Shown piece by piece: positions 13,684 to 62,320 of a stretch of 64,000 nt of DNA. The translations under genes were made by a program, and so were the position numbers. This DNA comes from Nemertoderma westbladi. Its lineage: Eukaryota; Animalia; Xenacoelomorpha. Where the stretch lies: positions 24,107 to 88,106 of the forward strand of contig JAUCBJ010005720.1 in NCBI GenBank assembly GCA_032718475.1. The letters are read 5' to 3'. Each line of letters opens with the position of its first letter. The first letter of the stretch is position 1. The notes below the pieces were generated by a model, which worked only from the letters and a program-made list of their open reading frames with translations, ran no database searches and was not told the origin of the DNA.

Positions 13684-13965
13684 GTAACAGTTATAGCTTC
13701 TTGATTGTGGCGTAAGCAATCAAGTTGATAGTACCGGTCGACCGGTAACCAGTAGGCCTGACTACCTGATCATCCGGACCGGTACTTACAGCAGTATAGG
13801 TACATCAGTATTATTTCGATTGTGATATATTGTATATTTTAGGCTCTTAGGGGATTAGGGATTGATCACCCCTTATTCCTTTGTATGGTTTACTTATTTC
13901 TGTCAGTTTTATTTACTAGTAGGCTAATATTGAGCAGAAGACGTGTAAACCTGCTCAGATTGTAC

Positions 13966-17054: not shown

Positions 17055-17094
17055 AGGCGGAGGAAATCAATCTCGCCTAAGCAGACGTAAAAGA

Positions 17095-23200: not shown

Positions 23201-23453
23201 AGCATATCGAAACGGCGGATACCTCGACCATAATCCTACACCTTCTGATGCAATCATATTGCCCCCTTCACCCAGGAGTTATGGCCCTCCTAGTAAAGTG
23301 GCTCCCCCCAAAGAGAAAAGGACTCTTGCTAGCCTCAAAAAACTGCGTAAACGCCGTCTGCGTAAGAAAGGCTAACTGTTTAGAGTATTTTTATATTTTA
23401 GAAACTGTGATTTGTTATATTTTATAGACTTAAATCCCATTTTCTGGGAGCGG

Positions 23454-32932: not shown

Positions 32933-33015
32933 ATGGGTAAGAAAAATAAATCCGATACAGAGATGGATAACTTTGCTGAGGTCGGTGACATCGAACTTCA
33001 GGAGAAAGGAAAACT
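32933..33015 (+). CDS. SLC6 gene B, first coding exon
   Basis: ATG GGT AAG... gives MGKKNKSDTEMDNFAEVGDIELQEKGK(L), with donor CT|gtaagt. Phase 2 matches the exon at 41662. Confidence 0.72.
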
Positions 33016-33084
33016 GTAAGTTGTAATTAATATATTATACTGAATATTTGAAAATCTATGTCAAGGTATTGAATGATGTATCGA

Positions 33085-36000: not shown

Positions 36001-39000
36001 TTCCACCCTGCCCCATCACAAGTTACAAACAGTGTAATAGATCCCGCATTCCTGATTCCACCCTGGCCCATCACAAGTTACAAACAGTGTAATAGATCCC
36101 GCATTCCTGATTCCACCCTGCCCCATCACAAGTTACAAACAGTGTAATAGATCCCGCATTCCTGATTCCACCCTGGCCCATCACAAGTTACAAACAGTGT
36201 AATAGATCCTGCATTCCTGATTCCACCATGGCCCATCACAAGTTACAAACAGTGTAATAGATTCCGCATTCCTGATTCCACTCTGGCCCATCACAAGTTA
36301 CAAACAGTGTAATAGATCCCGCATTCCTGATTCCACCCTGGCCCATCACAAGTTACAAACAGTGTAATAGATCCCGCATTCCTGATTCCACCCTGGCCCA
36401 TCACAAGTTACAAACAGTGTAATAGATCCTGCATTCCTGATTCCACCATGGCCCATCACAAGTTACAAACAGTGTAATAGATTCCGCATTCCAGATTCCA
36501 CTCTGGCCCATCACAAGTTACAAACAGTGTAATAGATCCCGCATTCCTGATTCCACCCTGGCCCATCACAAGTTACAAACAGTGTAATAGATCCTGCATT
36601 CCTGATTCCACCCTGCCCCATCACAAGTTACAAACAGTGTAATAGATCCTGCATTCCTGATTCCACCATGGCCCATCACAAGTTACAAACAGTGTAATAG
36701 ATCCTGCATTCCTGATTCCACCATGGCCCATCACAAGTTACAAACAGTGTAATAGATCCCGCATTCCTGATTCCACTCTGGCCCATCACAAGTTACAAAC
36801 AGTGTAATAGATCCCGCATTCCTGATTCCACCCTGGCCCATCACAAGTTACAAACAGTGTAATAGATGCCGCATTCCTGATTCCACCCTGGCCCATCACA
36901 AGTTACAAACAGTGTAATAGATCCCGCATTCCTGATTCCACCCTGGCCCATCACAAGTTACAAACAGTGTAATAGATCCCGCATTCCTGATTCCACCCTG
37001 GCCCATCACAAGTTACAAACAGTGTAATAGATCCTGCATTCCTGATTCCACCCTGCCCCATCACAAGTTACAAACAGTGTAATAGATCCCGCATTCCTGA
37101 TTCCACCCTGGCCCATCACAAGTTACAAACAGTGTAATAGATGCCGCATTCCTGATTCCACCCTGGCCCATCACAAGTTACAAACAGTGTAATAGATGCC
37201 GCATTCCTGATTCTACCCTGGCCCATCACAAGTTACAAACAGTGTAATAGATCCCGCATTCCTGATTCCACCCTGGCCCATCACATGTTACAAACAGTGT
37301 AATAGATCCTGCATTCCTGATTCCACCCTGGCCCATCACAAGTTACAAACAGTGTAATAGATCCCGCATTCCTGATTCCACCCTGGCCCATCACAAGTTA
37401 CAAACAGTGTAATAGATGCCGCATTCCTGATTCCACCCTGGCCCATCACAAGTTACAAACAGTGTAATAGATGCCGCATTCCTGATTCTACCCTGGCCCA
37501 TCACAAGTTACAAACAGTGTAATAGATCCCGCATTCCTGATTCCACCCTGGCCCATCACATGTTACAAACAGTGTAATAGATCCTGCATTCCTGATTCCA
37601 CCCTGGCCCATCACAAGTTACAAACAGTGTAATAGATCCCGCATTCCTGATTCCACCCTGGCCCATCACAAGTTACAAACAGTGTAATAGATGCCGCATT
37701 CCTGATTCCACCCTGGCCCATCACAAGTTACAAACAGTGTAATAGATGCCGCATTCCTGATTCTACCCTGGCCCATCACAAGTTACAAACAGTGTAATAG
37801 ATCCCGCATTCCTGATTCCACCCTGGCCCATCACATGTTACAAACAGTGTAATAGATCCTGCATTCCTGATTCCACCCTGGCCCATCACAAGTTACAAAC
37901 AGTGTAATAGATCCCGCATTCCTGATTCCACTCTGGCCCATCACAAGTTACAAACAGTGTAATAGATCCCGCATTCATGATTCCACTCTGGCCCATCACA
38001 AGTTACAAACAGTGTAATAGATCCCGCATTCCTGATTCCACCCTGCCCCATCACAAGTTACAAACAGTGTAATAGATCCCGCATTCCTGATTCCACTCTG
38101 GCCCATCACAAGTTACAAACAGTGTAATAGATCCCGCATTCCTGATTCCACCCTGGCCCACCACAAGTTACAAACAGTGTAATAGATCCTGCATTCCTGA
38201 TTCCACCATGGCCCATCACAAGTTACAAACAGTGTAATAGATCCCGCATTCCTGATTCCACTCTGGCCCATCACAAGTTACAAACAGTGTAATAGATCCC
38301 GCATTCCTGATTCCACCCTGGCCCATCACAAGTTACAAACAGTGTAATAGATCCTGCATTCCTGATTCCACCCTGCCCCATCACAAGTTACAAACAGTGT
38401 AATAGATGCCGCATTCCTGATTCCACCCTGGCCCATCACAAGTTACAAACAGTGTAATAGATCCCGCATTCCTGATTCCACCCTGGCCCATCACAAGTTA
38501 CAAACAGTGTAATAGATCCCGCATTCCTGATTCCACTCTGGCCCATCACAAGTTACAAACAGTGTAATAGATCCCGCATTCCTGATTCCACCCTGCCCCA
38601 TCACAAGTTACAAACAGTGTAATAGATCCTGCATTCCTGATTCCACCCTGCCCCATCACAAGTTACAAACAGTGTAATAGATGCCGCATTCCTGATTCTA
38701 CCCTGGCCCATCACAAGTTACAAACAGTGTAATAGATCCCGCATTCCTGATTCCACCCTGGCCCATCACATGTTACAAACAGTGTAATAGATCCTGCATT
38801 CCTGATTCCACCCTGGCCCATCACAAGTTACAAACAGTGTAATAGATCCCGCATTCCTGATTCCACTCTGGCCCATCACAAGTTACAAACAGTGTAATAG
38901 ATCCCGCATTCCTGATTCCACCCTGGCCCATCACAAGTTACAAACAGTGTAATAGATCCCGCATTCCTGATTCCACCCTGCCCCATCACAAGTTACAAAC

Positions 39001-40843
39001 AGTGTAATAGATCCCGCATTCCTGATTCCACTCTGGCCCATCACAAGTTACAAACAGTGTAATAGATCCCGCATTCCTGATTCCACCCTGGCCCACCACA
39101 AGTTACAAACAGTGTAATAGATCCTGCATTCCTGATTCCACCCTGCCCCATCACAAGTTACAAACAGTGTAATAGATCCTGCATTCCTGATTCTACCCTG
39201 CCCCATCACAAGTTACAAACAGTGTAATAGATCCCGCATTCCTGATTCCACCCTGCCCCATCACAAGTTACAAACAGTGTAATAGATCCCGCATTCCTGA
39301 TTCCAACCTGGCCCATCACAAGTTACAAACAGTGTAATAGATCCCGCATTCCTGATTCCACCCTGCCCCATCACAAGTTACAAACAGTGTAATAGATCCC
39401 GCATTCCTGATTCCACCCTGGCCCATCACAAGTTACAAACAGTGTAATAGATCCTGCATTCCTGATTCCACCCTGGCCCATCACAAGTTACAAACAGTGT
39501 AATAGATCCCGCATTCCTGATTCCACCCTGGCCCATCACAAGTTACAAACAGTGTAATAGATCCCGCATTCCTGATTCCACCCTGCCCCATCACAAGTTA
39601 CAAACAGTGTAATAGATCCCGCATTCCTGATTCCACCCTGGCCCATCACAAGTTACAAACAGTGTAATAGATCCCGCATTCCTGATTCCACCCTGGCCCA
39701 TCACAAGTTACAAACAGTGTAATAGATCCCGCATTCCTGATTCCACCCTGCCCCATCACAAGTTACAAACAGTGTAATAGATCCCGCATTCCTGATTCCA
39801 CCCTGCCCCATCACAAGTTACAAACAGTGCAATAGATCCCGCATTCCTGATTCCACCCTGGTCCATCACAAGTTACAAACAGTGTAATAGATCCTGCATT
39901 CCTGATTCCACCCTGGCCCATCACAAGTTACAAACAGTGTAATAGATCCCGCATTCCTGATTCCACCCTGGCCCATCACAAGTTACAAACAGTGTAATAG
40001 ATCCCGCATTCCTGATTCCACCCTGGCCCATCACATGTTACAAACAGTGTAATAGATCCCGCATTCCTGATTCCACCCTGGCCCATCACAAGTTACAAAC
40101 AGTGTAATAGATCCCGCATTCCTGATTCCACCCTGCCCCATCACAAGTTACAAACAGTGTAATAGATCCCGCATTCCTGATTCCACCCTGCCCCATCACA
40201 ACTTACAAACAGTGTAATAGATCCCGCATTCCTGATTCCACCCTGGCCCATCACAAGTTACAAACAGTGTAATAGATCCCGCATTCCTGATTCCACCCTG
40301 GCCCATCACAAGTTACAAACAGTGTAATAGATCCCGCATTCCTGATTCCACCCTGGCCCATCACAAGTTACAAACAGTGTAATAGATCCCGCATTCCTGA
40401 TTCCACCCTGGCCCATCACAAGTTACAAACAGTGTAATAGATCCCGCATTCCTGATTCCACCCTGCCCCATCACAAGTTACAAACAGTGTAATAGATCCC
40501 GCATTCCTGATTCCACCCTGGCCCATCACAAGTTACAAACAGTGTAATAGATCCCGCATTCCTGATTCCACCCTGCCCCATCACAAGTTACCAACAGTGT
40601 AATAGATCCCGCATTCCTGATTCCACCCTGCCCCATCACAAGTTACAAACAGTGTAATAGATCCCGCATTCCTGATTCCACCCTGGCCCATCACAAGTTA
40701 CAAACAGTGTAATAGATCCCGCATTCCTGATTCCACCCTGGCCCATCACAAGTTACAAACAGTGTAATAGATCCCGCATTCCTGATTCCACCCTGGCCCA
40801 TCACAAGTTACAAACAGTGTAATAGATCCCGCATTCCTGATTC
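33085..40843. repeat. 55-bp minisatellite (CCACCCTGGCCCATCACAAGTTACAAACAGTGTAATAGATCCCGCATTCCTGATT), about 141 copies, in intron 1 of gene B
   Basis: Highly homogeneous 55-bp period, with variant blocks recurring at 275- and 440-bp offsets. Confidence 0.97.
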
Positions 40844-41661
40844 TATAATAATCAATAATTTGATCCCATTAAATATATTGCAAAATTAACAATAATAATA
40901 AAAGAAATGCAAAGTTGGTTCCCCTTGCTAAATGCGAGGTGTATGTAGTAATTACCCAAACCTCGGACAATGATGGTATTTTTGTCCAGAGCATCCACAT
41001 CAACTTGATAAGCGATATGTCTAGTGCCGGTACTAATTGACTTGACGAGACAGTGTCACCATTATCTTCATTATCTGTCTTCTATTTCTAGCTATTTTTG
41101 ACTCTTTGTTATCGTAGTATAGACCTATACTGTACATGTTTTGGCTGATGTTCTTGGAAACAAATTCAATTATGGCAGTAAGATGACTAGTAGGATACTA
41201 TATGACAGTAGCATGACAATAGGATACTGTTTATAGAGTTGCCTCAAACTGTCCGTCACATCCGGGTAGCAGTTCATTGTCTTTTCCGATTAGTGGTAGA
41301 GGCGTGGTGGAAAAGATATTGAAACACTTGTGGGCATTTTTTTTCATGTGCAATTTATCATGTTTGTATATATTTTGTTCTAGAACAATTGTTGGACCTA
41401 CTGTTAGTAGCTAGTTTGTCAGTAGCTAGTACAAAATAAAAATTACTACAGTAGCAACATTATGAATATATTCGATTAAAGTTTCGGATATGAAAAATAA
41501 AAGTTAAAAATTTGTGATCTCGGCAATACTAGTAAGTACTTTATTTATCGACTAATTTTTCCGGTATTTTAGCCACCATTTAATAGAACTAGTCTAAGAT
41601 AAATAACTTAACAAATAACACGATAAATAACTCTACTAAGTGCAATGTATCGTTTATTTAG

Positions 41662-44290: not shown

Positions 44291-44513
44291 GTATTGGTTT
44301 TTCTGGGATTCTGATTGCATTCTATCTCAATAATTACTACATTGTTATTCTGTCATGGACGCTTCATTATTTCGGAAATTCGTTCCAAGCGAATTTGCCA
44401 TGGGCAACCTGCGGCAACGCATGGAATACCAAAGACTGCATTGATGATGAACGTAGGAATTTGTCGTACCAGGCGGTTAATAGACCCACCGACCCTGCTG
44501 AGGAGTACTGGAG
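44291..44513 (+). CDS. SLC6 gene B exon 4 (TM3 and extracellular loop 2); GABA/taurine/creatine-subfamily-like
   Basis: ttttag|GT acceptor, (G)IGFSGILIAFYLNNYYIVILSWTLHYFGNSFQANLPWATCGNAWNTKDC...RPTDPAEEYW, donor AG|gtaagt. This frame is not in the ORF track. Confidence 0.93.
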
Positions 44514-46685
44514 GTAAGTTGGTGAAACAACCGACTTGCTGAGGAGTACTGGAGGTAAGTTGGTTAACCAACCGACCTTGCTGAGGAGTACTGGAGGTAA
44601 GTTGGTTAACCAACCGACCTTGCTGAGGAATACTGGAGATAAGTTGGTTAACCAACCGACCCTGCTGAGGAGTACTGGAGCTAAGTTGGTTAACCAACCG
44701 ACCTTGCTGAGGAGTACTGGAGCTAAGTTGGTTAACCAACCGACCTTGCAGAGGAGTACTGGAGCTAAGTTGGTTAACCAACCGACCCTGCTGAGGAGTA
44801 CTGGAGCTAAGTTGGCTAACCAACCGACCCTGCTGAGGAGTACTGGAGGTAAGTTAGTTCCAAACCGACCCTGCTCAGGAGTACTGGAGGTAAGTTGGTG
44901 AAACAACCGACCCTGCTGAGGAGTACTGGAGCTAAGTTGGTTAACCAACCGACCTTGCTGAGGAGTACTGGAGCTAAGTTGGTTAACCAACCGACCTTGC
45001 AGAGGAGTACTGGAGGTAAGTTGGTTAACCAACCGACCCTGCTGAGGAGTACTGGAGCTAAGTTGGTTAACCAACCGACCTTGCTGAGGAGTACTGGAGG
45101 TAAGTTGGTGAAACAACCGACTTGCTGAGGAGTACTGGAGGTAAGTTACTTCCAAACCGACCCTGCTGAGGAGTACTGGAGCTAATTTGGTTAACCAACC
45201 GACCTTGCAGAGGAGTACTGGAGCTAAGTTGGTTAACCAACCGACCCTGCTGAGGAGTACTGGAGGTAAGTTGTGAAACAACCGACTTGCTGAGGAGTAC
45301 TGGAGGTAAGTTAGTTCCAAACCGACCCTGCTGAGGAGTACTGGAGGTAAGTTAGTTCCAAACCGACCCTGCTGAGGAGTACTGGAGCTAAGTTGGTTAA
45401 CCAACCGACCCTGCTGAGGAGTACTGGAGGTAAGTTAGTTCCAAACCGACCCTGCTGAGGAGTACTGGAGCTAAGTTGGTTAACCAACCGACCCTGCTGA
45501 GGAGTACTGGAGCTAAGTTGGTTAACCAACCGACCCTGCTGAGGAGTACTGGAGGTAAGTTAGTTCCAAACCGACCCTGCTGAGGAGTACTGGAGCTAAG
45601 TTGGTTAACCAACCGACCCTGCTGAGGAGTACTGGAGCTAAGTTGGTTAACCAACCGACCCTGCTGAGGAGTACTGGAGGTAAGTTAGTTCCAAACCGAC
45701 CCTGCTGAGGAGTACTGGAGCTAAGTTGGTTAACCAACCGACCCTGCTGAGGAGTACTGGAGGTAAGTTAGTTCCAAACCGACCCTGCTGAGGAGTACTG
45801 GAGCTAAGTTGGTTAACCAACCGACCCTGCTGAGGAGTACTGGAGCTAAGTTGGTTAACCAACCGACCTTGCTGAGGAGTACTGGAGGTAAGTTTGTTAA
45901 CCAACCGACCTTGCTGAGGAGTACTGGAGCTAAGTTGGTTAACCAACCGACCTTGCTGAGGAGTACTGGAGCTAAGTTGGTTAACCAACCGACCCTGCTG
46001 AGGAGTACTGGAGGTAAGTTAGTTCCAAACCGACCCTGCTGAGGAGTACTGGAGCTAAGTTGGTTAACCAACCGACCCTGCTGAGGAGTACTGGAGCTAA
46101 GTTGGTTAACCAACCGACCTTGCTGAGGAGTACTGGAGCTAAGTTGGTGAAACAACTGACCTTGCTGAGGAGTACGGGAGGTAAGTTAGTTCCAAACCGA
46201 CCCTGCTGAGGAGTACTGGAGGTAAGTTAGTTCCAAACCGACCCTGCTGAGGAGTACTGGAGCTAAGTTGGTTAACCAACCGACCTTGCTGAGGAGTACT
46301 GGAGCTAAGTTGGTTAACCAACCGACCCTGCTGAGGAGTACTGGAGGTAAGTTAGTTCCAAACCGACCCTGCTGAGGAGTACTGGAGCTAAGTTGGTTAA
46401 CCAACCGACCTTGCTGAGGAGTACTGGAGGTAAGTTGGTGAAACAACAGACCCTGTTGAGGAGTACTGGAGGTAAGTTAGTTCCAAACCGACCCTGCTGA
46501 GGAGTACTGGAGCTAAGTTGGTTAACCAACCGACCCTGCTGAGGAGTACTGGAGGTAAGTTAGTTCCAAACCGACCCTGCTGAGGAGTACTGGAGCTAAG
46601 TTGGTTAACCAACCGACCCTGCTGAGGAGTACTGGAGCTAAGTTGGTTAACCAACCGACCCTGCTGAGGAGTACTGGAGGTAAGT

Positions 46686-48541
46686 ACCTGAGTAAGTGCT
46701 TAACTACTATAAAAAACCATCCAAATTGTTTATAGATGGAGAATATATCATGTCATCTGAAGGAATGACTCAGGGATGTCCAGTGGCAATGCCCGGATAT
46801 GGACTGTGCATCACCCCCCTCATTGATAGACTCGGCGCCGTAACCACCACTTCCCAGAAGTGGTTTGCTGATGACGCCAATGCTAGCGGTCGTCTAAAAC
46901 AACTAAGAAAATATTGGGGAGAATTGGTCGAATGGGGACCTAAATACGGGTATTTTCCAAATGCCTCAAAAACTTGGTTAATAGTAAAACCCGAGTTATT
47001 AGAAGAGGCGAGGATGCTGTTCGCAGGAACCAATGTGCAGATATCTGCAGGTGGTCATAGGATCCTGGGCGGTGCAGTTGGTAGTGACGATTCCATTCGG
47101 CAGTTTGTTCTTGATAAGGTCGAGTCTTTTGTTCGACAGGTGGAGCGATTGAGTCCGATCGCAGACATTGACCCGCATTGTGCATTTACCTGTCTTTCCT
47201 TTGGACTCTCTGCGAAGTGGCGGTTCATTTGTCGGGTAATCCCCAACATCGAGCTGCTATTGGCACCACTCGACGAGGCAGTCAAGACTTTCCTAATGAA
47301 ACTGGGTAACAGAGTAAACTTATCTGAAACCGAACAGAAACTAATAGCGCTGCCAACAAGATTGGGAGGACTAGGCATACCCATTCCATCAGATCTTAGT
47401 AAGGAATACGATAACTCAAGAGCCATCAGTGAGCCATTGATGGAGCGACTTCCAACAGATACAATGGCCGATGTCAGGGAAAAACAGAAAGAAACATCCA
47501 AAGCTATCAAATCGGAGCAAAACATAAGGGTCGCAGAAGAAATACAAAGTATACAGGTCGCAATATCCCCAGTTCAGGAACAACTACGAATCTTATCTTC
47601 ACAGAAGGGGGCATCGGCTTGGCTCAACACCAGACCATCAACCCAGCACAACTATCACCTCACAAAGTCAGAGTTCAGGGATGCGATCCAGCTTAGGTTC
47701 GGATGGCAGTTGCAGGCGACACCGGCGGAATGTGCCTGTGGGGCGCGGTTCACAGTAAACCACGTTTTATCGTGCCCCACAGGTGGTTTTCCGTCGGTCC
47801 GTCACAATGAAATCAGAGATTTCATCGCCAACACATTAACCGAGGTTGCCCATGATATCTCAATCGAGCCTGTACTCCAACCAATCACTGGGGAAACATT
47901 CCATCGCTCTACAACCACAAGGGATGAGGGTGCTCGGTTAGATGTATCTGTCAGTGGTTTCTGGGGAGGTCGTTATGAGAAACTGTTGATTGATGTTTCT
48001 GTATTTAACCCCCTAGCACCATCCAATTCCTCTTTGGGCGTCGATAGAGCTTATACCCATCACGAGAACCGAAAGAGGGCCCAATATGAAGAAAGAGTTC
48101 GGGATGTAGAAATGTCAACGTTCTGTCCCTTCATTCTAGCGGCTACTGGAGGAATGGGTTGGAGTGCACGTATCTTCACTAAACGTCTCGCTGATTTGTT
48201 AGCAGTGAAGAGAGAGATCAGCTACAATGAAGCAATTCAGTGGCTTCGCCGCAAAATCAGCTTTGCTTTATTACGTTCAGTAATAATGTGTGTTCGCGGA
48301 AGCAGATCGACACTAAGGCGACCCATTCTGCACAATATGGCCGATACCTCAATCTTGGTAGCCAATGCGGACGCGCGGGTGGTGTAAGATTGGAGGGACC
48401 ATGCTTTGTTCTGCAGTTTTGTGGTGTTTCTTTTTTTTATAAATATAGATGTCTATAATTGCTCATTTTCATGATTTAATAAATTTACCGGTAAGATTAA
48501 TTAATAATAAAAAATTAGTTTATAATTAAAAAAAAAAAAAA
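46686..48541 (+). mobile_element. 5'-truncated non-LTR retrotransposon with restriction-like endonuclease (CRE-clade-like)
   Basis: Poly(A) tail at 48528-48541 and 13-bp TSD ACTGGAGGTAAGT (46673-46685, 48542-48554), with an uninterrupted ORF inside. Confidence 0.9.
46696..48387 (+). CDS. Partial RT + CCHC zinc knuckle + PD-(D/E)xK-type RLE of the CRE-like element
   Basis: GMTQGCP, WFADDA, GPKYGYFPNASKT, LPTRLGGLGI, CACGARFTVNHVLSC..RHNEIRD, RLDVSV..LIDVSV..HENRKRAQY. Confidence 0.9.
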   Translation: MLNYYKKPSKLFIDGEYIMSSEGMTQGCPVAMPGYGLCITPLIDRLGAVTTTSQKWFADDANASGRLKQLRKYWGELVEWGPKYGYFPNASKTWLIVKPELLEEARMLFAGTNVQISAGGHRILGGAVGSDDSIRQFVLDKVESFVRQVERLSPIADIDPHCAFTCLSFGLSAKWRFICRVIPNIELLLAPLDEAVKTFLMKLGNRVNLSETEQKLIALPTRLGGLGIPIPSDLSKEYDNSRAISEPLMERLPTDTMADVREKQKETSKAIKSEQNIRVAEEIQSIQVAISPVQEQLRILSSQKGASAWLNTRPSTQHNYHLTKSEFRDAIQLRFGWQLQATPAECACGARFTVNHVLSCPTGGFPSVRHNEIRDFIANTLTEVAHDISIEPVLQPITGETFHRSTTTRDEGARLDVSVSGFWGGRYEKLLIDVSVFNPLAPSNSSLGVDRAYTHHENRKRAQYEERVRDVEMSTFCPFILAATGGMGWSARIFTKRLADLLAVKREISYNEAIQWLRRKISFALLRSVIMCVRGSRSTLRRPILHNMADTSILVANADARVV

Positions 48542-50011
48542 ACTGGAGGTAAGTTAGTTCCAAACCGACCCTGCTGAGGAGTACTGGAGCTAAGTTGGTT
48601 AACCAACCGACCTTGCTGAGGAGTACTGGAGGTAAGTTGGTGAAACAACTGACTTGCTGAGGAGTACGGGAGGTAAGTTAGTTCCAAACCGACCCTGCTG
48701 AGGAGTACTGGAGCTAAGTTGGTTAACCAACCGACCCTGCTGAGGAGTACTGGAGCTAAGTTGGTTAACCAACCGACCTTGCTGAGGAGTACTGGAGGTA
48801 AGTTACTTCCAAACCGACCCTGCTGAGGAGTACTGGAGCTAAGTTGGTTAACCAACCGACCCTGCTGAGGAGTACTGGAGCTAAGTTGGTTAACCAGCCG
48901 ACCCTGCTGAGGAGTACTGGAGCTAAGTTGGTTAACCAACCGACCCTGCTGAGGAGTACTGGAGCTAAGTTGGTTAACCAGCCGACCCTGCTGAGGAGTA
49001 CTGGAGCTAAGTTGGTTAACCAACCGACCCTGCTGAGGAGTACTGGAGCTAAGTTGGTTAACCAACCGACCTTGCTGAGGAGTACTGGAGGTAAGTTAGT
49101 TCCAAACCGACCCTGCTGAGGAGTACTGGAGCTAAGTTGGTTAACCAACCGACCTTGCTGAGGAGTACTGGAGGTAAGTTGGTGAAACAACCGACTTGCT
49201 GAGGAGTACTGGAGGTAAGTTAGTTCCAAACCGACCCTGCTGAGGAGTACTGGAGCTAAGTTGGTTAACCAACCGACCCTGCTGAGGAGTACTGGAGCTA
49301 AGTTGGTTAACCAACCGACCCTGCTGAGGAGTACTGGAGCTAAGTTGGTTAACCAGCCGACCCTGCTGAGGAGTACTGGAGCTAAGTTGGTTAACCAACC
49401 GACCCTGCTGAGGAGTACTGGAGCTAAGTTGGTTAACCAACCGACCTTGCTGAGGAGTACTGGAGGTAAGTTAGTTCCAAACCGACCCTGCTGAGGAGTA
49501 CTGGAGCTAAGTTGGTTAACCAACCGACCTTGCTGAGGAGTACTGGAGGTAAGTTGGTGAAACAACCGACTTGCTGAGGAGTACTGGAGGTAAGTTAGTT
49601 CCAAACCGACCCTGCTGAGGAGTACTGGAGCTAAGTTGGTTAACCAACCGACCTTGCTGAGGAGTACTGGAGCTAAGTTGGTTAACCAACCGACCTTGCA
49701 GAGGAGTACTGGAGCTAAGTTGGTTAACCAACCGACCCTGCTGAGGAGTACTGGAGCTAAGTTGGTTAACCAACCGACCTTGCAGAGGAGTACTGGAGCT
49801 AAGTTGGTTAACCAACCGACCCTGCTGAGGAGTACTGGAGGTAAGATAGTTCCAAACCGACCCTGCTGAGGAGTACTGGAGCTAAGTTGGTTAACCAACC
49901 GACCCTGCTGAGGAGTACTGGAGGTAAGTTAGTTCCAAACCGACCCTGCTGAGGAGTACTGGAGGTAAGTTGGTTAACCAACCGACCCTGCTGAGGAGTA
50001 CTGGAGGTAAG

Positions 50012-50558
50012 TGTTAGCTTATTCAATCCCGCTAACACCCCATAAAGTTTAGCCAATAAGCAATATTGGGAGCCACGAGATTGGGTAATTAACCAACTCG
50101 TGCCATCCCAATAAGAATGGGAAGGAGAAGCACACAATGAGGGTCAGGGGCCAAACCCCTAACCCAGAGAGAACAGGTGGAGTGAACGGGAACACTCCAA
50201 AGGGCGCCAACAAGGGTATCAACCAATCAGAGGGGGGAAAGGCATCGATTAGGTAGAGTAACAAGGCCAACCGTGCAATATAGCCACTTGGCAGTAATCA
50301 TATCAATTCAGTTATCTCAGTGCAATACTGGTGCTAGTTTAGGTTACATAGTTTAGCTAGGGAAGGACCGGGACTTTAGTTACCGTATCCCGCCTTCCGT
50401 ATACAACAACATATTATCTCATATCTATATCTATATCTATATCTGTATACCCGAATATTATATACGACGAACAGCACAAACTCATTCACTCTTTATACAC
50501 GGCGGGGACGCGTAAACTAACAACGGATAAACCGGGATCCCTCTTGGATCCCGTCACA
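50012..50558 (+). repeat. 5' LTR of BEL element 2 (547 bp)
   Basis: TGTTAGC...GTCACA. Contains CCAATCAG (about 50223), AATATAG (about 50277), TCAGTT (about 50308) and a terminal hairpin CGGGATCC-CTCTT-GGATCCCG. Confidence 0.95.
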
Positions 50559-50641
50559 GTAACTAAAACCGAGCTGCTGCCCTAGTTAAACTGTAACAAC
50601 TGCTGCCCTAGCTAGCTGAACTCCACCGATCACCAACCGAG

Positions 50642-53234
50642 ATGAGTCAGTCGGGAGAGATAACACCGACGCGGACCCCGGACGAAGAACAAACGATCCG
50701 CGAGGCCGCGACCAGGCGGTATAGGCCCACGACGCCGGAGCCATCGGTAACGGGCGATCCGGCAGTTCAAGATGAGGGGGACCGTCTGGAGTCAGAAGTC
50801 GAGTCGAGAGGAGGGGGATCGAGTCGGAGGATAGAGAGAACGAGCTCGAGGGAGAAGGAGACGAGTCGACACGGGACGGGGGTCGACGCACCGGTGTCGC
50901 CGGCCAGCCACAGGCCGAGGGCGACGAGCGGCCCACCGAAACGGCGACGGTGGGGCCGACGGTGCGGCGCCGGACGCGGAGAGACGAAGGAGATATCGGT
51001 ACCGATGTCGCCGGCCAGCCACAGGCCGAGGGCGACGGACGGCCCGCCGGAACGGCGACGGTGGGGCCGCCGGTACGACGTCGAACCCGGAGAGACGGAC
51101 GAGAGGTCGGCGACGAGGACGTCGGGGTTTCTGAGCGACTTCGACGGGCCTACAACGCGACCCGGAGACTACTAGACGAGGCCAGAAAGGGGAAGACGAT
51201 AGACGAGGTAAAACTAAAGTCAGGACTAGGTAAGTCGGACAGACATTTATATTATCTGATGCGCTTCGGGCAGAGAGAACTAGCCGAGGAGAGAGCGAAA
51301 GGGGTTGCCAGTGAACTGTTCGAACTATGGGAATGTGGGAGTATGGAACCTAGCGTAGCGTCAGTGTACATAGGGCCATACTTGGTCGATGCCCGGGGAG
51401 TAAAATTAGTGGGTTGGAGGGGACCTGAAGGGGGCGAATCCGAGGTTAACCCCGAGGATTCGGCCTCGTCGGTCGGAGGAAGTTCCGGGAAGCGGGGGAA
51501 AGTTAGTAGGATCGGGGAGGCGAAGGGAGTCCGTCGTGACCGATAAGTCTGCTACATCCTCCGCGAAAGAAAGACTGGTGAGAGAGGCAGGTGCCGCGTA
51601 CCGTCTCGAGCTGATAGAGCAAGGTCAGAGGGAAATGGATAAACGGCTAGAGGAGGGGAGAATGCGGCTAGAGAGGGAAGCGGCATTGATTAGAGAAACC
51701 GGAGAGAAGGCCGAAAGGGCTTTGAGAAGCCTTAGGGAGTATGATGAAATAGAGTTGAAGGAACAAGAGGAGCGTGTGGCGAGAGAGAAAAGTGAACGCG
51801 AGAAACGTGAGGTGAGAGAGAAAAGTGAACGCAAGGAGCGTGAGGCGAAGTGGGAAAGTGAACGAAAGGAACGTGAGGCGGAACGCGAGAAACGTGAGGC
51901 GAGGGAGGAAAGTGAACGAAAGGAACGTGAGGCGGAACGCGAGAAACGTGAGGCGAGGGAGGAAAGTGAACGCAGAGAGCGTGAAGCGAGACGAAGGGAG
52001 AGCGCTAGGAGAGTAGCAGAGTTGGCTGGCCAGGACGCGCGGGAGTGTGAGAGGAGAATGGCAGAAGCTGAGCGAGAGCAAAAGGAATTAGAGAGACGCC
52101 AAAGTGAGCTTTCGGAACATAGGATTAGACGCGCGCACGAGTTGCAAATGGTGCGGGCGGGGGCGTCTGAGAGCGAGACTGGCTCGAGTATTTTAGAGGA
52201 GCCAGGGGCCGTGGATACATTTATTAATACCCCACTTACAGGGACCGCACGACAGACCCAAAACTGGTGTGACCGTACGGGCGGGGGGGGGGGGGGGGGG
52301 GGGTAATAATGATAATGGTACAGTAGACGTGGTTAATATTAATAGTACCGTATGGGATAATTCTAATCAAACCTTTATTGCAGGAAATACTTTACCTAGT
52401 GGTAGTAATTTAAATTTAAATCAGAACATTCCTAATATTAATGTAGAAAATAATTCTAATATTAATGTAGCTACGCAAAATAATCCAAATAATCAAAGTA
52501 ATAACCCAAATTCGAACTTGCAAAATAATTTAAGTAATGCAATTACACAAAATAATCCAAATAACTTAAATAATTCAGCGAGCCCGAATTTACAAAATAA
52601 TTCAGATAGTGTAGTCGCGCAAGATAATTCAAATGATTTTATTTCGAACGAACAAATTAATTCCGTTTCCAATACGGGTGCTATTAATGTAAACACGTCG
52701 GGCGTGTATGGCCAGACAGATGGGGCCCTGGTAGGCCACGTAGTTAGTAGGCCGGAAGTAGCTGGGTTAGGTAGACCCGGCGAGGGCCTGGTAGGCCACG
52801 TAGTTGGTAGGCAGGGAGTGGCTGGGTTAGGTAGACCCGGCGAGGGCCTGGTAGGCCACGTAGTTGGTAGGCAGGGAGTGGCTGGGTTGGATGGACCCAG
52901 CGAGGGCCTGGTAGGCCACGTAGTTGGTAGGCAGGGAGTGGCTGGGTTGAATAGACCCAGCGAGGGCCTGGTAGGCCACATAGTCGGTAGGCAGGGAGTG
53001 GCTGGGTTGAATAGACCCAGCGAGGGCCTGGTAGGCCACATAGTCGGTAGGCAGGGAGCAGAGGGCCTGGTAGGCCACGCAATAGCAGAGAGAGAGGCGG
53101 GGGTGAATAAACCCGACCGCGGTAGGGTTGATGTGTCGACTAGAGAGGGATATAGTAGCGGGATGAGAGATAGCGAAGTTAGATGTGGCGAGTGGGGGGG
53201 GGGGGGCTACGAGAGCCCCACAACAGCGAGTTAG
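50642..53234 (+). pseudogene. BEL2 gag N-terminal low-complexity region (E/R/K helix, Asn-rich block, 60-bp x6 repeat), in several frames
   Basis: Overlapping ORFs at 50642, 50950, 51536 and 52269 directly after the leader. Some breaks fall at poly-G runs and may be sequencing errors. Confidence 0.65.
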
Positions 53235-53363
53235 CGGCGAAAGGGGGGGGGGGGGGCAGAGAGTGTCCCACAGCCGTCAGCGGATAATGCGAGGGCCGAA
53301 ATAGGTAAACCGCAACAACCGGCGACGGAAAGTAATAGGGGGATTGCGAGTATCCCCAGCGGC

Positions 53364-56300
53364 GTGCGACCGAGCAGAGAGAGACAGGTTGACGTCGTAA
53401 GAGGGCGGACGAAGCGTCGAGCCCGATCAGAAGAGGGAAGAAGAACAGTGGGATTTAACCGGGAGGTCGACGAGAGATCTCACGAACGGGAATATTCCAC
53501 TGAAAGGAGAAGAAGAGAAGACAGTAGTAGAAGTATCGCCGCGAACGATAGAAGAGCGAGGACGGATAGCGAGCCGTCGGTAGTCGAGATGAGAACGGGG
53601 AGTCAGTGGGGTCGGACTCCGGGAGATTGCCGTCGCCCCGGAGAGATGCGACCCGGTGAGGTGCATTGCGCGCCGATGGAGGGGTGCGCGATGTACCGGT
53701 ACGAAGACGAGAGCAGTAGAGGAGGGGGTCGAAGAGAAACTTTCCGACGGAATATACCTACCGATCGAGAGTACGGTAGCCACGGGGAGGACTATTCGAG
53801 AAGAATAAACTTCGATCCCGAGCGACACATGCAGACTGCAGGACATACTGTAGGCCTTACTGCACATACCATAGGCCATACTGAGAGAGGCAATGTAGGG
53901 GATAGGATGGCGCGGACAACGGGATTAAACCCGGAAGTCGCGGAATACATACCGGCGAGTAGGCCAGAAGCTGATAGGCCTATACCGGTACCAGTACAGC
54001 AGTATGACTACAGCATGCAGGGACATAACATATACCCAGGGGAGGGGGGAATTATTGCGGATAGGTGTATGGGCCCCAACATATTAACATCAACCCCAGT
54101 ACCAAACATACCGGTGGGGGGGGGGGGGGGACAGGGTGACATTCCCCCATCACAATATCAACAATATATCCCGATAGGAGCAAGAACAACGAGACCCTTA
54201 GATGAAAACAGGTCGTGTGACACAGAAATATGGAGGGGGCCGCTACCCCCGATGACATACCCAAGTCAGAGAAGATCAAGAAATAGGATGGACGAACCGC
54301 ACCAGACAGGAGAAACTATACAGCACCCGTCGAATCCATTGGAAGCGCAGGCGATGGGGATGGCCACATTGATCGATGCGTTGAAAACGAGGATCGAGCT
54401 ACCACCCGTGGAACCATTCAAATTCGATGGGAGTAGGCCGGAAGAATATCTACAGTTTCGGCGCATGTATAGTAACGAAATACTAACAAAAAACTTGACG
54501 CAGGCGGAGTGCCTAAAGTATCTGCAAGTATATACGGGAGGCCCAGCATACGATATCGTGAGGCAATATCAGAAGGGGAAGGAAGATAGATACAGCAGTA
54601 GGGCCGTCGATATGATTCGACGCGGCTTCTACGTAGACGACGGAATGGAGTCTGGAAATACGGTTAAGGAAATACTGGACACGGGGCGCGAGGTTCGCGA
54701 CATCCTAAAAGGATCCGGTTTTAACCTGACCAAATTCCAATCCAGTTCGGAAGAATTTATCAAGGCGATAGAGGACAAGAAGCCAGAATCGACCATGGAT
54801 AATCCCACAACGGCCAAAGGGCAGGACATGGCGATTAAAAGAACAGAATCTCAACAGAAGGCGTTGGGAATCGTGTGGGATAGAGAGACAGACGAACTTA
54901 AATATCAGCTAAGCCAGGAGGGCGCAGACATCCACACGAAGAGGGGCTATGTATCGTATATAGCAAGGATATACGATCCCCTAGGCCTAGCATCCCCATT
55001 ATTAGTCACGGGGAAACAGATACTCAAAAGAGTATACAAATTGAAGGATGAGTGGGACGTAGAGGTACCAGAGGAAATCAAGAAGCAGTGGAGCAAGTGG
55101 ACAAGAGACTTGGAGAAGATGGGAACATACAACATGCCCCGAGTGTATTTCCCGGATGGGAACATGATGAGTCTGGACCTACACATGTTCTCCGATGCGT
55201 CGTTGGAGGCGTACGGAGCGGCACTCTATTTAGTACAACGAGAGGGGGCTCATAAGCCCAGACTAGCCTTTAGCAAAGCAAAGTCAACGCCGCCAGATTC
55301 AGCATCAGTTCCCAAGTTAGAATTGACAGCTGCGAGACTAGGAGTTAGAGCCACAGCCTACCTAGTGGATACTATTCCCAACATAGTGGAGACACACTAC
55401 TGGACGGACTCCATGGTAGTGCTTGGTTGGCTACATAATGAAAGGACGAGATACCCGATATTCGTCGCAAATAGAGTGGACGAAATAAGGGCGACCACAG
55501 AACTGGAAAGGTGGCACTACTGCCCAACAGACGAGAACCCAGCGGACTTGCTGTCGAGGGGCGTGGTACGCCACACTTTCTTGAAGAAGGAAGTATTGTG
55601 GCAACATGGGCCACAATTTCTGAGCGATAAGGAGGCCTGGCCGCCGATGAGAAAGGTGGACCCGGGCTCAGAAGTAGTATCAGAAGGAGAAGAGGGAGAT
55701 TCAGAGGGAGAAGAGATATACTCCCAGATGGTGAGGGAGATTAGGGACGTGCAACCAGGACGGGAACTGTGCGATAACCCGACGGATAAACTCCTCAGCT
55801 ACAGTTCTAGTTGGTATAAGACCAAGAAACTAGTGGCGTACTGGAGAGCCTTCGGGAATTTCCTTGCGGGAGTTGGCAAGGACAAGAAGATCAGGACAAC
55901 CATAGATCTGGAAGGAGCGGCCAAGGCAGTGATCCGCTATGAACAACGGAAGAACTATGGCGACGAGGTGGAACGCGTCGGTAACCAACAGCACCTCCGA
56001 CGGGACAGCGAGCTGATTACGCTGTCGCCACAACTCAATGACGACGGGATTCTAGTAATGAATTCTAGGGTGGGATACAACAACAGCATAGTCGTACCAC
56101 CGAAACCCATCATCATTCCCACGGGATCGCCAATAGTCCACCAGATTATCTGGGACTCCCATAAGTCGATATTGCACGGGGGCACCAACCGAACCCTCAC
56201 AGAGATAAGGAGGACCTATTGGGTCAAACAATTAAGGAAGAAGGTTAAAGCGGTAGTGGGGCAGTGCCAGACCTGCCGACGAGCGAAGAAGGAGCGAGCC

Positions 56301-57273
56301 GTACAGGAGATGGCGCCACTACCGGCGAGTAGGGTAAGACAGCACGACCCGCCATTTACGCATTGCGGTGTGGACATGTTCGGGCCGATAAAGATCAAAG
56401 TGATGCGACACACGGAGAAACGCTACGGCATCATCTTCGTATGCAACAACACACGGGCGGTAGGGATAGAACTCGCCCAAGATGCAACTGCATCAGCATT
56501 CATTAATGCCTTAGAAAGGTTTAGGGACCGGCCGCAAAGGTGGGACGATCGCAGTGATATACAGCGACAACGGCACCAACTTTGTGGGCGCAGAGAGTGA
56601 GATGGCAGAGGCCTTGGACATCTTGGAGGGAGAAGAAGTCAGGGCAGCCATGAGGCGACGACAAGTAAAGTGGGAGAGAAGGACGCCGTATGCACCACAT
56701 ACACTAGGGTGCGTCGAGAGACTGGTGGGCAGTTCAAAGCGTCTAATGACGAAGCTAATGAACACCCACATGGTCACTGAGGACGTCTTACGGACAGTAC
56801 TTGCGAAGTGCGAGGGGATCATTAATAGCAGACCGCTATATCCGGAGAATGATGACCCTGAGTCGTTAGACGTGCTGACGCCTAGCCATTTCCTGATGGA
56901 AAGGCCAGCGACCATCGATATGCGGGGTGTAGACCCAGATGACATACACTCTTGCCAAAGTTGGAAAGTCGCTAAAGCAATAAGCGCAGAGTATTGGAGG
57001 AGGTGGGTAGAAGAATACCTACCCACGCTCCATAAGCGAAGCAAGTGGAGGAAGCCGAACAGGGAGTTAAGAGTAGGAGATCTCGTAATCGTTACGGATG
57101 ATACTATCATCAATAACCAGTGGCGGTTGGCGAGAGTTGTAGGCACCTACTCCGATGAGGACGGAAGAGTCCGATCGGTAGAAGTGCGGATAGGTGGTAA
57201 GATAGGTGCGAAGGACAGGAAAACCTACAGGAGAGCAGTAGGCAAATGCTGTCTGCTAGAAGGAGCACCTTAA
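53364..57273 (+). pseudogene. BEL2 gag fused in frame to RT C-half, RNase H and integrase (frameshift near 56550)
   Basis: FKFDGSRPEEY..CLKYLQVYTGGPA is joined directly to FYVDDG. Then IYDPLGL, HMFSDAS, PKLELTAA, WTDSMVVLGWL, ENPADLLSRG, H..H..CQTC, CGVDMFGP, YSDNGTNF, WRRWVEEYL. Confidence 0.9.
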
Positions 57274-57394
57274 CTTGGAGTTAGAGTAGAGTTTAGTCGT
57301 CCAAGATTTGGACTGAGGGGGGTGGGATTGAGGGCGAAACGCCCTTCCCACACAAATAAAATAAAAATAAAATAAAAATAATAAGTACACAGTA

Positions 57395-58065
57395 GGTACG
57401 CAGTTAGTAGGCAGAAGTTAGTTAAGAGGTACGTAGTACCTAGTTAGTTAGTTAGTTAGGAGGTACGTAGTACCGATAGTTAGTTAGAGAGTTAGAGGGT
57501 ACGTAGTACCGATAGTTAGTTAGAGAGTTAGGGGGTACGTAGTACCGTTAGTTAGAGAAGAGTTAGAGGGTACGTAGTATCGTTAGTTAGAGAAGAGTTA
57601 GAGGGTACGTAATACCATTAGTTAGAGGAGAGTTAGAGGGTACGTAAGTACCGTTAGTTAGTTAGAGAGTTAGAGGGTACGTAAGTACCGTTAGTTAGTT
57701 AGAGAGTTAGAGGGTACGTAGTACCGTTAGAGAAGAGTTAGAGTTAGGGTATGTAGTACCGTTAGTTAGAGAAGAGTTAGAGGGTACGTAGTACCGTTAG
57801 TTAGAGGAGAGTTAGAGGGTACGTAAGTACCGTTAGTTAGTTAGAGAGTTAGAGGGTACGTAAGTACCATTAGTTAGTTAGAGAGTTAGAGGGTACGTAG
57901 TACCGTTAGAGAAGAGTTAGAGTTTGGGTACGTAGTACCATTAGTTAGAGAAGAGTTAGAGGGTACGTAGTACCGTTAGTTAGAGGAGAGTTAGAGGGTA
58001 CGTAGTACCGTTAGTTAGAGAAGAGTTAGAGTTAGAGGGTACGTAGTACCGTTAGTTAGAGAGAG
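57395..58065. repeat. About 30-35-bp degenerate tandem repeat (GTTAGAGGGTACGTAGTACCGTTAGTTAGAGAAGA) in the BEL2 3' non-coding region
   Basis: About 20 copies, each with a GGTAC-GTA-GTACC hairpin core. Confidence 0.85.
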
Positions 58066-59638
58066 AGAGTAAGAGGTAGAAGGGTATATAAGATATAGAT
58101 ATTAGTTAGCAGTTAGTAGCGTTAGTAGCGAGAGGGGGGCATATGAGTACAGCTGGGTAAATCGTGTGGCCACACGACGCACACTGCTGTACTGCATAGG
58201 CCCACAGAGTAGGCCAGAATGTGGATTAGGGAATAGAATAATCAATAGGAAGCAGTAAGGTAGTAGGATTGAAATTAAATCAAAAATAAAATTAGAATAA
58301 GAATAGGGCTAAGAAGGGGAACAAATTATGGTAACAGTAGTAAGAATAGGCAATAACTCAGAAATTCAGAAAGAGATAGGCCATCGAACTGAACTTAAAC
58401 CACCTAAACCCATCACTCATCACGTTTGCGCCTTGGCAAGGCACCACCTACGGGTGAGCGATCGGGCAGAGTTCGAGATGGCAGGTAAACTTGTGAGAGA
58501 GGAGAGAAGCAGAGGAGAGGGAGGAGGAAGCTAGGGCGCAGAGCTATGGCTTCGAGGAATAAGCAGCCTTAGACGAACTTCGTTGGGCTTCGTCAGGGAG
58601 TTCGAGGGAGTCTCTAGGGAAAGAACTGGGGTGGACGGTGGGATCACCGAAACAGTCGACGTCGGGATTGCAAGCAATGAAGATGATCTTATGGGACGCC
58701 ACCAGAGGGAGACAACCGGGCCACTCTGAGGGGCCACCTGCGAAACGGTATCGGGCACTAATAACACCAGCGCCCAAGGAGCCAACAACCGGAATCAGCA
58801 GGGAGGTGGCGGCGAGAGTCCGAAAGCAGAAAGCGGATCCCAGAGGAGCGGTGGTGACCAAGAAACGACCCAGGGAAGAGGACGCCAGGGGGAACTATCC
58901 TCAGAGGAACAGATAGGTTCCCAGGGCCGGGGGAGAGAAACTGGGACTTGGACGTGTTACGCCTGGAAGGCACCGCGTGGGACGTACGAACTATTAAGTA
59001 CAAATCTAATTAATGCAAATAATCATATAAGTGCAATTTGTATGTACGTACGTAGTGATTAGTAATCTAGAATATATACGCTCGAAGTAAGTACTATAGT
59101 CATTCAACCTTTCTCAATTAGCTACTGGGACTGGGGGGTAAACTGACTATGGCACTATGGACGAGACACCAGACAATTTCACACTTCTTGAGTGCGACGG
59201 CACGAGAGGGGGGGGGGGGGGGGAGATTTGTCAGAAGGGATGAGGTAGTCAGAGTGGGGTTAAGGGACGGAGTAATGGAGCGAAATGCAGAGAGAGTGCG
59301 GATGCAATTCTAGTGTGTGGGGGGGGGGGGAGAATAAGAGGCTGAGTGAGGGACGAGGAGGTCCGAGTGTATGAGAGAGTTAGGATGAGAGTGAAGAAGA
59401 GATAGGGCGGAAGTGTTGGGGAAACAAAAGTTGCGTGAGAGGTGAGCGCGATCGGCCCGACATGAGACGCCAGGCACACAGGGTAGCGTTATCATACCCA
59501 TAGGGAGCGGCCTGGAAAGCCGGCTCCGAGAGAAAAGAATTCCACCCCACACCCGATACTAGATCGGGATCCAGCGGGATTGCAGCGCACTTTTTGGTTG
59601 ATGCTATCTTCCTACCGGGAAGATAGCATGGGGGGGAG

Positions 59639-60181
59639 TGTTAGCTTATTCAATCCCGCTAACACCCCATAAAGTTTAGCCAATAAGCAATATTGGGAGC
59701 CACGAGATTGGGTAATTAACCAACTCGTGCCATCCCAATAAGAATGGGAAGGAGAAGCACACAATGAGGGTCAGGGGCCAAACCCCTAACCCAGAGAGAA
59801 CAGGTGGAGTGAACGGGAACACTCCAAAGGGCGCCAACAAGGGTATCAACCAATCAGAGGGGGGAAAGGCATCGATTAGGTAGAGTAACAAGGCCGACCG
59901 TGCAATATAGCCACTTGGCAGTAATCATATCAATTCAGTTATCTCAGTGCAATACTGGTGCTAGTTTAGGTTACATAGTTTAGCTAGGGAAGGACCGGGA
60001 CTTTAGTTACCGTACCCCGCCTTCCATATACAACAATATTATCTCACATCTATATCTATATCTATATCTGTATACCCGAATATTATACGACGGACAGTAC
60101 AAACTCATTCACTCTTTATACACGGCGGGGACGCGTAAACTAAAAACGGATAAACCGGGATCCCTCTTGGATCCCGTCACA
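59639..60181 (+). repeat. 3' LTR of BEL element 2 (543 bp)
   Basis: Copy of 50012-50558 with about 7 substitutions and two 2-bp indels. Confidence 0.95.
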
Positions 60182-62320
60182 GTAAGTTAGTTCCAAACCG
60201 ACCCTGCTGAGGAGTACTGGAGCTAAGTTGGTTAACCAACCGACCCTGCTGAGGAGTACTGGAGGTAAGTTAGTTCCAAACCGACCCTGCTAAGGAGTAC
60301 TGGAGGTAAGTTAGTTCCAAACCGACCCTGCTGAGGAGTACTGGAGGTAAGTTAGTTCCAAACCGACCCTGCTAAGGAGTACTGGAGGTAAGTTGGTTAA
60401 CCAACCGACCTTGCTGAGGAGTACTGGAGCTAAGTTGGTTCACCAACCGACCCTGCTGAGGAGTACTGGAGGTAAGTTAGTTCCAAACCGACCCTGCTGA
60501 GGAGTACTGGAGCTAAGTTGGTTAACCAACCGACCCTGCTGAGGAGTACTGGAGCTAAGTTGGTTAACCAACAGACCCTGTTGAGGAGTACTGGAGGTAA
60601 GTTAGTTCCAAACCGACCCTGCTCAGGAGTACTGGAGGTAAGTTGTTTGACATTGAGAAAAAGAATATTGAGAAAAAAACATTGAGAACAAAACATTGAG
60701 AAAAAGAATATTGAGAAAAAAACATTGAGAAAAAAACATTGAGAAAAAAGACATTGAGATAAAAATTAGTTGCAATTTTTTTCTCAATGCCGTTCAGGAG
60801 AAATAAAACAGATACATTGAGAAAAAAAACATTGAATATTAATACAAAATGTATGCCATAATAACTATCACCGTTCGCTAACATAAAATTACTAAACCGA
60901 CCCTGCTGAGGAGTACTGGAGCTAAGTTGGTTAACCAACCGATCCTGCTGAGGAGTACTGGAGCTAAGTTGGTTAACCAACCGACCTTGCTGAGGAGTAC
61001 TGGAGGTAAGTTAGTTCCAAACCGACCCTGCTGAGGAGTACTTGAGCTAAGTTGGTTAACCAACCGACCTTGCTGAGGAGTACTGGAGCTAAGTTGGTTA
61101 ACCAGCCGACCCTGCTGAGGAGTACTGGAGCTAAGTTGGTTAACCAACCGACTTGCTGAGGAGTACTGGAGCTAAGTTGGTTAACCAACCGACCCTGCTG
61201 AGGAGTACTGGAGCTAAGTTGGTTAACCAACCGACCTTGCTGAGGAGTACTGGAGGTAAGTTAGTTCCAAACCGACCCTGTTGAGGAGTACTGGAGCTAA
61301 GTTGGTTAACCAACCGACCTTGCTGAGGAGTACTGGAGGTAAGTTGGTTAACCAACCGACCCTGCTGAGGAGTACTGGAGGTAAGTTGGTTAACCAACCG
61401 ACCCTGCTGAGGAGTACTGGAGCTAAGTTGGTTAACCAACCGACCTTGCTGGGGAGTACTGGAGGTAAGTTAGTTCCAAACCGACCCTGCTGAGGAGTAC
61501 TGGAGCTAAGTTGGTTAACCCACCGACCTTGCTGAGGAGTACTGGAGGTAAGTTGGTTAACCAACCGACCCTGCTGAGGAGTACTGGAGCTAAGTTGGTT
61601 AACCAGCCGACCCTGCTGAGGAGTACTGGAGGTAAGTTGGTTAACCAACCGACCCTGCTCAGGAGTACTGGAGGTAAGTTGGTTAACCAACCGACCCTGC
61701 TCAGGAGTACTGGAGGTAAGTTGGTTAACCAACCGACCTTGCTGGGGAGTACTGGAGGTAAGTTGGTTAACCAGCCGACCCTGCTAAGGAGTACTGGAGC
61801 TAAGTTGGTTAACCAACCGACTTGCTGAGGAGTACTGGAGGTAAGTTACTTCCAAACCGACCCTGCTGAGGAGTACTGGAGCGAAGTTGGTTAACCAACC
61901 GACCCTGCTGAGGAGTGCTGGAGGTAAGTTAGTTCCAAACCGACCCTGCTCAGGAGTACTGGAGGTAAGTTGTTTGACATTGAGAAAAAGAATATTGAGA
62001 AAAAACATTGAGAAAAAAAACATTGAGAAAAAAGACATTGAGATAAAAATTAGTTGCAATTTTTTTCTCAATGCCTTTCAAGAGAAATAAAACAAATACA
62101 TTGAGAAAAAAAACATTGAGATAAAAATTAGTTGCAATTTTTTTCTCAATGCCTTTCAGGAGAAATAAAACAAATACATTGAGAAAAAAAACATTGAATA
62201 TTAATACTAAATGTATGCCATAATAACTATCACCGTTCGCTAACATAAAATTGCTAAACCAATAATAACTTCTTAACTTTAACATAAGAGTTTAAACGGA
62301 GCAAAGGATAATAATAATAA

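Follow-up and report, generated by a model that had tools for sequence, protein, structure and literature searches.

Primer-binding sites complementary to their own LTRs in two BEL/Pao elements of Nemertoderma westbladi suggest self-primed reverse transcription

The window analyzed here, a 64,000-nt stretch of the Nemertoderma westbladi genome, contains two BEL/Pao elements with paired long terminal repeats (LTRs), identified by self-comparison and Pfam searches, and all of their features lie on the forward strand. Element 2 spans 50012-60181 within a 41-42-bp satellite. Its 5′ LTR (50012-50558; TG...CA, 547 nt) and 3′ LTR (59639-60181) differ by 7 substitutions and 2 two-base indels, corresponding to about 97.5% identity; the 5-bp target-site duplication (TSD) GTAAG is found at 50007-50011 and again at 60182-60186, and a polypurine tract (59630-59638) abuts the 3′ LTR. 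The main ORF (53235-56600) encodes a partial Gag with a DUF1759 start, the RT YVDD motif, an RNase H region (Peptidase_A17) and the integrase zinc finger, while the C-terminal part of the integrase (DUF5641) is read in a different frame at 56515-57273. Since the partial Gag is joined in frame straight to the YVDD part of RT, the protease, the zinc knuckles and the N-terminal half of RT are missing. The nearest proteins reach about 33% identity, and almost all of them carry PF05380.

Element 1 spans 12498-24662, with LTRs at 12498-13683 and 23454-24662 and the TSD GGTGG, and retains a Gag-protease ORF (16999-20220) that ends in a short RNase H remnant and is accompanied by neither RT nor integrase. 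Both window copies are non-autonomous internal-deletion derivatives, and neither encodes a complete PR-RT-RH-IN polyprotein. The nearest relatives of the element 1 Gag-protease among the loci surveyed below (L038/L002) are 23% identical, and the Gag remnants of the two window elements share 26% identity over just 84 residues. Their LTRs were described in the first-pass annotation as dissimilar, and indeed the sole stretch in common is a 14-nt CCAAT box (blastn E 0.27), which precedes the primer end by about 140-150 nt in each element (50219-50232 in element 2, 12811-12824 in element 1); judging from the NF-Y consensus, this box presumably has a promoter role. Degraded BEL pol fragments flank element 1 on its upstream (10022-10504, N-terminal part of RT) and downstream (24668-27330, RNase H and integrase) sides, and element 1 was probably inserted into an older BEL element.

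Several other repeats share the window. The satellite around element 2 (44484-61978), whose unit contains a perfect splice-donor-like AG/GTAAGT, carries three insertions at nearly the same unit position: a non-LTR retrotransposon, element 2 itself and a low-complexity 243-bp piece (60651-60894). The non-LTR retrotransposon (46685-48531), which we take to be CRE-like, is 5′-truncated, with a 563-aa ORF that shows RT-like and restriction-like endonuclease motifs and no Pfam match, a poly(A) end and an 11-bp TSD in the satellite; within the satellite unit, this TSD and that of element 2 end at the identical base. The region 27560-29400, where no LTR was found, holds another BEL Gag-like start (28072-28713); roughly 500 nt before it is a TGGTGAC motif, possibly the tRNA-type primer-binding site (PBS) of another element. 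Finally, a 55-bp unit is repeated about 141 times in an array at 32975-41000.

Element 2 shows the domains of BEL/Pao (Belpaoviridae), namely the Peptidase_A17 region, the H2C2 integrase, DUF5641 and a DUF1759 Gag, together with the corresponding structural traits: TG..CA LTRs, a polypurine tract and a 5-bp TSD. The ICTV profile describes Belpaoviridae/Semotivirus as primed by host tRNA through an 18-nt tRNA-Arg/Gly PBS, and states that BEL/Pao replication is poorly understood and assumed to be tRNA-primed (PMC8742986); a tRNA-Tyr PBS is given for Achilles (PMC4580426). Domain content and order, LTR ends, polypurine tract and TSD are shared with these elements, whereas neither window element has a TGG-type PBS, and that of element 2 starts with GTAAC instead of matching an 18-nt tRNA 3′ end. 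We take the ICTV statement on the PBS as descriptive, the assignment to Belpaoviridae being made by pol.

The 9-nt PBS of element 2 (50559-50567, within GTAACTAAAACCG at 50559-50571) is flush with the LTR end, and its perfect complement, TTTAGTTAC, is found at 50375-50383 of the element's own LTR as a putative self-primer core; beyond an internal loop, CGG at 50369-50371 faces CCG at 50569-50571. All of this had been proposed from the letters in the first-pass annotation and is present in the window. In element 1, the 11-nt PBS (13684-13694) has its exact complement at 12951-12961, followed by CG. TGG is absent from the PBS position of either element, and both have the perfect complement at offset 0. 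When the LTR was dinucleotide-shuffled, such a complement appeared in 37 of 20,000 trials for element 2 and 15 of 20,000 for element 1, in agreement with the earlier judgment that chance is unlikely. A search for GT-AG introns within the LTR brought no gain in duplex length for either element (9 vs 9 in element 2; best 10 vs 11 in element 1).

The LTR boundary, about which the annotation had cautioned because GTAAG and GTAAC overlap, stands as drawn: it is supported by the TG..CA ends and the 5-bp TSD, and three contigs of sequencing run X4 leave the LTR straight after 50558 into unrelated flanks, so that the end is independent of the overlap. For the GTAAG duplication we also considered an integrase-independent insertion through PBS homology, as described for Tf1 (PMC11042837), and rejected it; the clean 5-bp TSD with both element ends intact favors normal integration.

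Around the core of element 2, further helices can be drawn. The bases after the primer end (50384-50394) pair with 50501-50510 in a post-primer stem with one bulge and one G-U, the latter becoming G-C in the 3′ LTR, which has C at 50388; a PBS-like sequence in U5, GTAAACTAA (50512-50520), and an 8-bp hairpin at the U5 terminus (50533-50553) follow. These three features had been noticed from the sequence, and we located each of them where the first reading had placed it. An additional outer helix, absent from that reading, joins 50349-50362 in the LTR to 50580-50593 in the leader (14 bp, 2 G-U), bringing the LTR:leader duplex to about 35 nt overall. The leader repeats the outer-helix arm at 50600-50619, with CTGCTGCCCTAG at 50574 and 50601, so that the upstream LTR arm could also pair in a second register.

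When folded by itself, the segment 50360-50580 is no more stable than its shuffles (z -0.89), and its minimum-free-energy structure pairs the primer with the U5 decoy GTAAACTAA instead of the PBS. In folds that all end at 50600, the primer:PBS pairing probability stays at 0.00-0.01 when the RNA starts at 50366-50375 but reaches 0.62 for a start at 50360 and 0.84 for one at 50345; since it climbs once the RNA start reaches the upstream arm, the outer helix matters. In these models, the decoy of this copy would win over the PBS in any RNA that starts downstream of about 50360. The corresponding probability in element 1 is 0.997 for starts at 12940-12951 and 0.065 from 12900.

Sequence variation within the element 2 family was examined in contigs from public DNA runs X1-X4, representing three samples; the family is high-copy, with 2228 contigs in run X3. 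The table of substitutions at or above 2% is complete for the U5 part that it covers, with the primer arm lying outside this coverage. It lists no substitution in the PBS (50559-50567), none in 50497-50513, a stretch that holds the 3′ arm of the post-primer stem, and none in the arms of the U5 hairpin, the loop of which varies at 50541 and 50544. Among the 40 of 177 variant sites listed, none falls in the primer or PBS, and variants occur at 50568 and 50570, right past the ninth PBS base. The decoy GTAAACTAA, in turn, is among the most variable stretches, with substitutions at 50514-50519, 50521 and 50523 and many insertions. Of the conserved RNA fold that had been proposed, three parts seem to be preserved in this family, namely the post-primer arm, the arms of the hairpin and the PBS, while the U5 decoy is highly variable; this variability at 50514-50523 rules out the decoy as a conserved switch. 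At contig joints, subfamily contigs replace the 80-96-nt loop between the arms of the post-primer stem. Judged by eye, one contig present in runs X1 and X3 of a single sample shows a longer U5 hairpin whose arms differ. One X4 contig runs on past the LTR end and GT (50560) into a different leader that still resembles that of the family; it may belong to a subfamily that uses a different PBS, in which case the primer of that subfamily could reveal covariation directly. A family-specific DNA pattern had 0 matches in metagenomes, and scans of viral contigs gave no match.

To place the two window elements among their relatives, we collected 87 BEL/Pao loci, nine of which have two LTR copies that fix the 3′ end of the LTR. 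A TGG PBS was found in none of these nine, in a sample of relatives that includes no tRNA-primed BEL control. Across the nine elements and the window pair, a duplex of at least 9 bp between the PBS and the element's own LTR was present in 10 of 11, compared with 4 of 110 cross-pairs; seven of the 11 elements reached 11 bp or more, a length seen in 0 of the 110 cross-pairs. The LTR end of L031 was moved by 7 nt by hand (offset 9), and the sole miss at 9 bp, L052, had an over-extended LTR end and shows 11 bp once this is corrected; with both hand-set ends, which are after-the-fact adjustments, all 11 elements pair their PBS over 9-12 bp with their own LTR. Scans of sequences with unfixed LTR ends added four elements (23 regions), six (44 loci) and nine (20 regions), with L042 and L066 of the 44-locus scan, and contiguous 9-11-mers and the L043 hairpin of the 23-region scan, excluded as chance-looking. 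A null was run for the 20-region scan alone, in which at least 10 bp was seen in 10 of 20 regions (null 23/500) and at least 11 bp in 8 of 20 (null 5/500). No match was obtained in 35 of the 44 loci and 10 of the 20 regions, many of which seem truncated, yet L020 spans the LTR start to the ORF and also lacks a complement. In total, the signature was recognized in 28 distinct outside elements, accounting for 33 of the 87 loci. The initial proposal of a self-complementary, non-tRNA PBS whose letters differ between elements consequently extends well beyond its two examples. As side observations, the LTRs of L011, L052/L054 and L077 end in TA, not CA, and the BEL/Pao contigs L081-L087 sit in seven GTDB MAGs assigned to prokaryotes, presumably as host contamination.

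A set of 14 elements, including the window pair, shows what recurs. In 13 of these, the perfect core begins at a distance of 0-4 nt from the end of the LTR. The outer parts, which played no role in the selection, also favor the leader of their own element, with a mean of -11.6 kcal/mol against -7.6 for other leaders, a preference reached in 0 of 20,000 permutations; element 2 scores strongest, and three of the 14 rank poorly. Thirteen of the 14 also carry a poly(A) hexamer 11-93 nt past the end of the primer, which is what an R region starting at the cut needs; the exception is element 2, which has no AATAAA or ATTAAA after the primer. Primers end in AC or AT (one ambiguous), and the recurring trait is a PBS start of GT or AT. 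The bases that follow the primer vary, CG being restricted to the two window elements, so the conserved cleavage site GUUAC^CG that had been suggested is not supported. The covariation claimed between the two examples involves two unalignable LTRs and does not amount to formal covariation.

Of the 28 outside signature elements, six are contiguous; in the other 22, a GT-AG intron of the LTR has to be bridged for the complement to form or to gain its full length. Five of the nine two-copy elements are split in this manner (L011, L018, L035, L052 and L062), with canonical GT-AG introns of 77-186 nt and the primer ending 6-7 nt into the second exon. The LTR of L033 has a 536-nt GTAAGT..CAG intron (137-672) inside the primer, and the 3′ LTR of L022 (6694-7103), a member of the same family, lacks exactly that intron, with 135/137 identical positions in exon 1 and 160/182 in exon 2. 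We read this intron-less LTR as reverse-transcribed spliced RNA, a reading that would stay intact even if the L022 contig was assembled from two subfamilies. These patterns suggest that in many relatives the primer is likely stitched together by splicing.

A FastTree phylogeny of RT(C)-RH-IN was built from element 2, 72 of the 87 loci and 32 named proteins, the other 15 loci being left out because they lack an unbroken 430-residue match. Signature-bearing elements are scattered over clades containing fish, fluke and mollusc sequences. The tree includes no named reference elements with which to place element 2 in a BEL/Pao clade (Suzu, Sinbad, Pao, Bel, Tas, Dan or Flow), and element 2 has a weak placement on a long branch (1.68). 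A clade of GTAAC-PBS elements, the possibility that the annotation had raised for an RT/integrase tree, is not shown, since pol is missing from element 1 and element 2 stands isolated.

Self-primed reverse transcription has been described for Tf1/sushi elements (PMC10085805, PMC4600332). As in Tf1/Tf2/Tj1 and Tf1/sushi, there is no tRNA PBS here, the PBS complements the element's own LTR, and flanking helices complete a multi-duplex structure (PMC10085805); Tf1 has a PBS start of ATAAC (PMC11042837), close to the GT/AT starts of the BEL/Pao elements. There are also differences. Tf1 is a Ty3/gypsy chromovirus, whereas the window elements are BEL/Pao, and no chromodomain was detected in element 2 with Pfam; element 2 would be Tf1-like in how it works and is not a member of Tf1/sushi. 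Moreover, pairing reaches upstream of the core, so that the RNA probably does not begin with the primer, as it does with the first 11 nt in Tf1; in element 2, the stem after the primer closes on U5 instead of PBS-adjacent sequence; and many BEL/Pao relatives would require splicing for their primer. The plant Tcn1 (gypsy) and TAR (copia) lineages, which belong to other superfamilies, were predicted to self-prime from a complement of at least 10 bp located 0-5 nt past the 5′ LTR (PMC6317226). We judged the window elements by the same own-LTR complement, and their PBS does lie within 0-5 nt of the LTR end; at that published cut-off, the 9 bp of element 2 narrowly fall short and intron-split primers would be missed altogether.

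From the pairing, its position, its independence of any particular sequence and the presence or absence of introns, we infer that element 2 uses its own RNA for Tf1-like self-priming in cis, with a probability of about 0.68. Transcription would start upstream of 50349, and the 5′ end of the RNA would fold back onto the PBS and leader in an interrupted duplex of the 9-bp core, the CGG:CCG helix and the 14-bp outer helix, with the post-primer stem and U5 hairpin closing a multi-helix junction. RNase H is predicted to cut after 50383, leaving a 3′-OH adjoining the LTR end, from which RT would copy U5-R as far as the cut; an intact relative would have to provide RT and RNase H in trans. Most of the relatives sampled would obtain this primer in complete form only after splicing out a GT-AG LTR intron; the two window elements are the contiguous form, which intron loss can produce. 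The core of just 9 bp, the competition from the U5 decoy and the lack of a poly(A) hexamer past the primer speak against self-priming in element 2, as the persistence of introns in relatives' 3′ LTRs does against a cis mechanism.

An unlikely alternative is that the LTR:leader duplex has a structural or regulatory function (packaging, dimerization, translation or poly(A) control) and that the primer is a tRNA fragment or another host small RNA. The duplex of about 35 nt in element 2 does exceed what a primer needs. However, the core is placed against the LTR end, where priming must occur, in all but one of the 14 elements, and the PBS differs in each element and tracks its own LTR, so a shared host RNA could not match all of them. 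Slightly less probable again is a primer that derives from the LTR and acts in trans, in which short (spliced) transcripts of solo or 3′ LTRs anneal to unspliced genomic RNA. Such a route would account for the survival of introns, kept in most outside signature elements, and is favored by the high copy number of the family and by the poly(A) signal past the primer, which makes short transcripts plausible; the intron-less 3′ LTR of L022 indicates, however, that the template end can be spliced as well, cis folding is enough for both window elements, and the Tf1 precedent is cis. It is highly improbable that the primer is made by a ribozyme that cleaves itself at a conserved GUUAC^CG site. Both window elements do read GTTAC followed by CG, but the next bases are variable among the 12 remaining elements of the set of 14, Rfam covariance models matched no known ribozyme or RNA family (a single chance match, E 3.8), and small ribozymes leave a 2′,3′-cyclic phosphate, no 3′-OH. 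Equally improbable, and largely refuted by the shuffles, the cross-pairs and the insertions that diverge past 50558, is chance complementarity or a boundary misplaced owing to the TSD, despite the 4 of 5 bases that GTAAG has in common with the PBS start and the unremarkable local fold.

Beyond cis self-priming in element 2, we lean slightly toward a wider reading, in which a large part of BEL/Pao, comprising Sinbad/Suzu-like elements and the divergent lineage of the window, is self-primed. Its widespread form would be a primer built by host splicing of an LTR intron, with the spliceosome gating reverse transcription, and contiguous-primer elements would be intron-loss derivatives that are free of this gate and rely on a long fold-back duplex. 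We found no report of self-priming or splice-built primers in BEL/Pao in the literature searched; PMC554778 and PMC3118150 do not contain the terms PBS, tRNA or priming. If this reading is true, BEL/Pao would be the third superfamily with self-priming, after Tf1/sushi-type gypsy and the predicted TAR copia elements, its self-priming would account for the missing PBS calls in annotation pipelines, and a splice-assembled primer would link the initiation of reverse transcription to host splicing.
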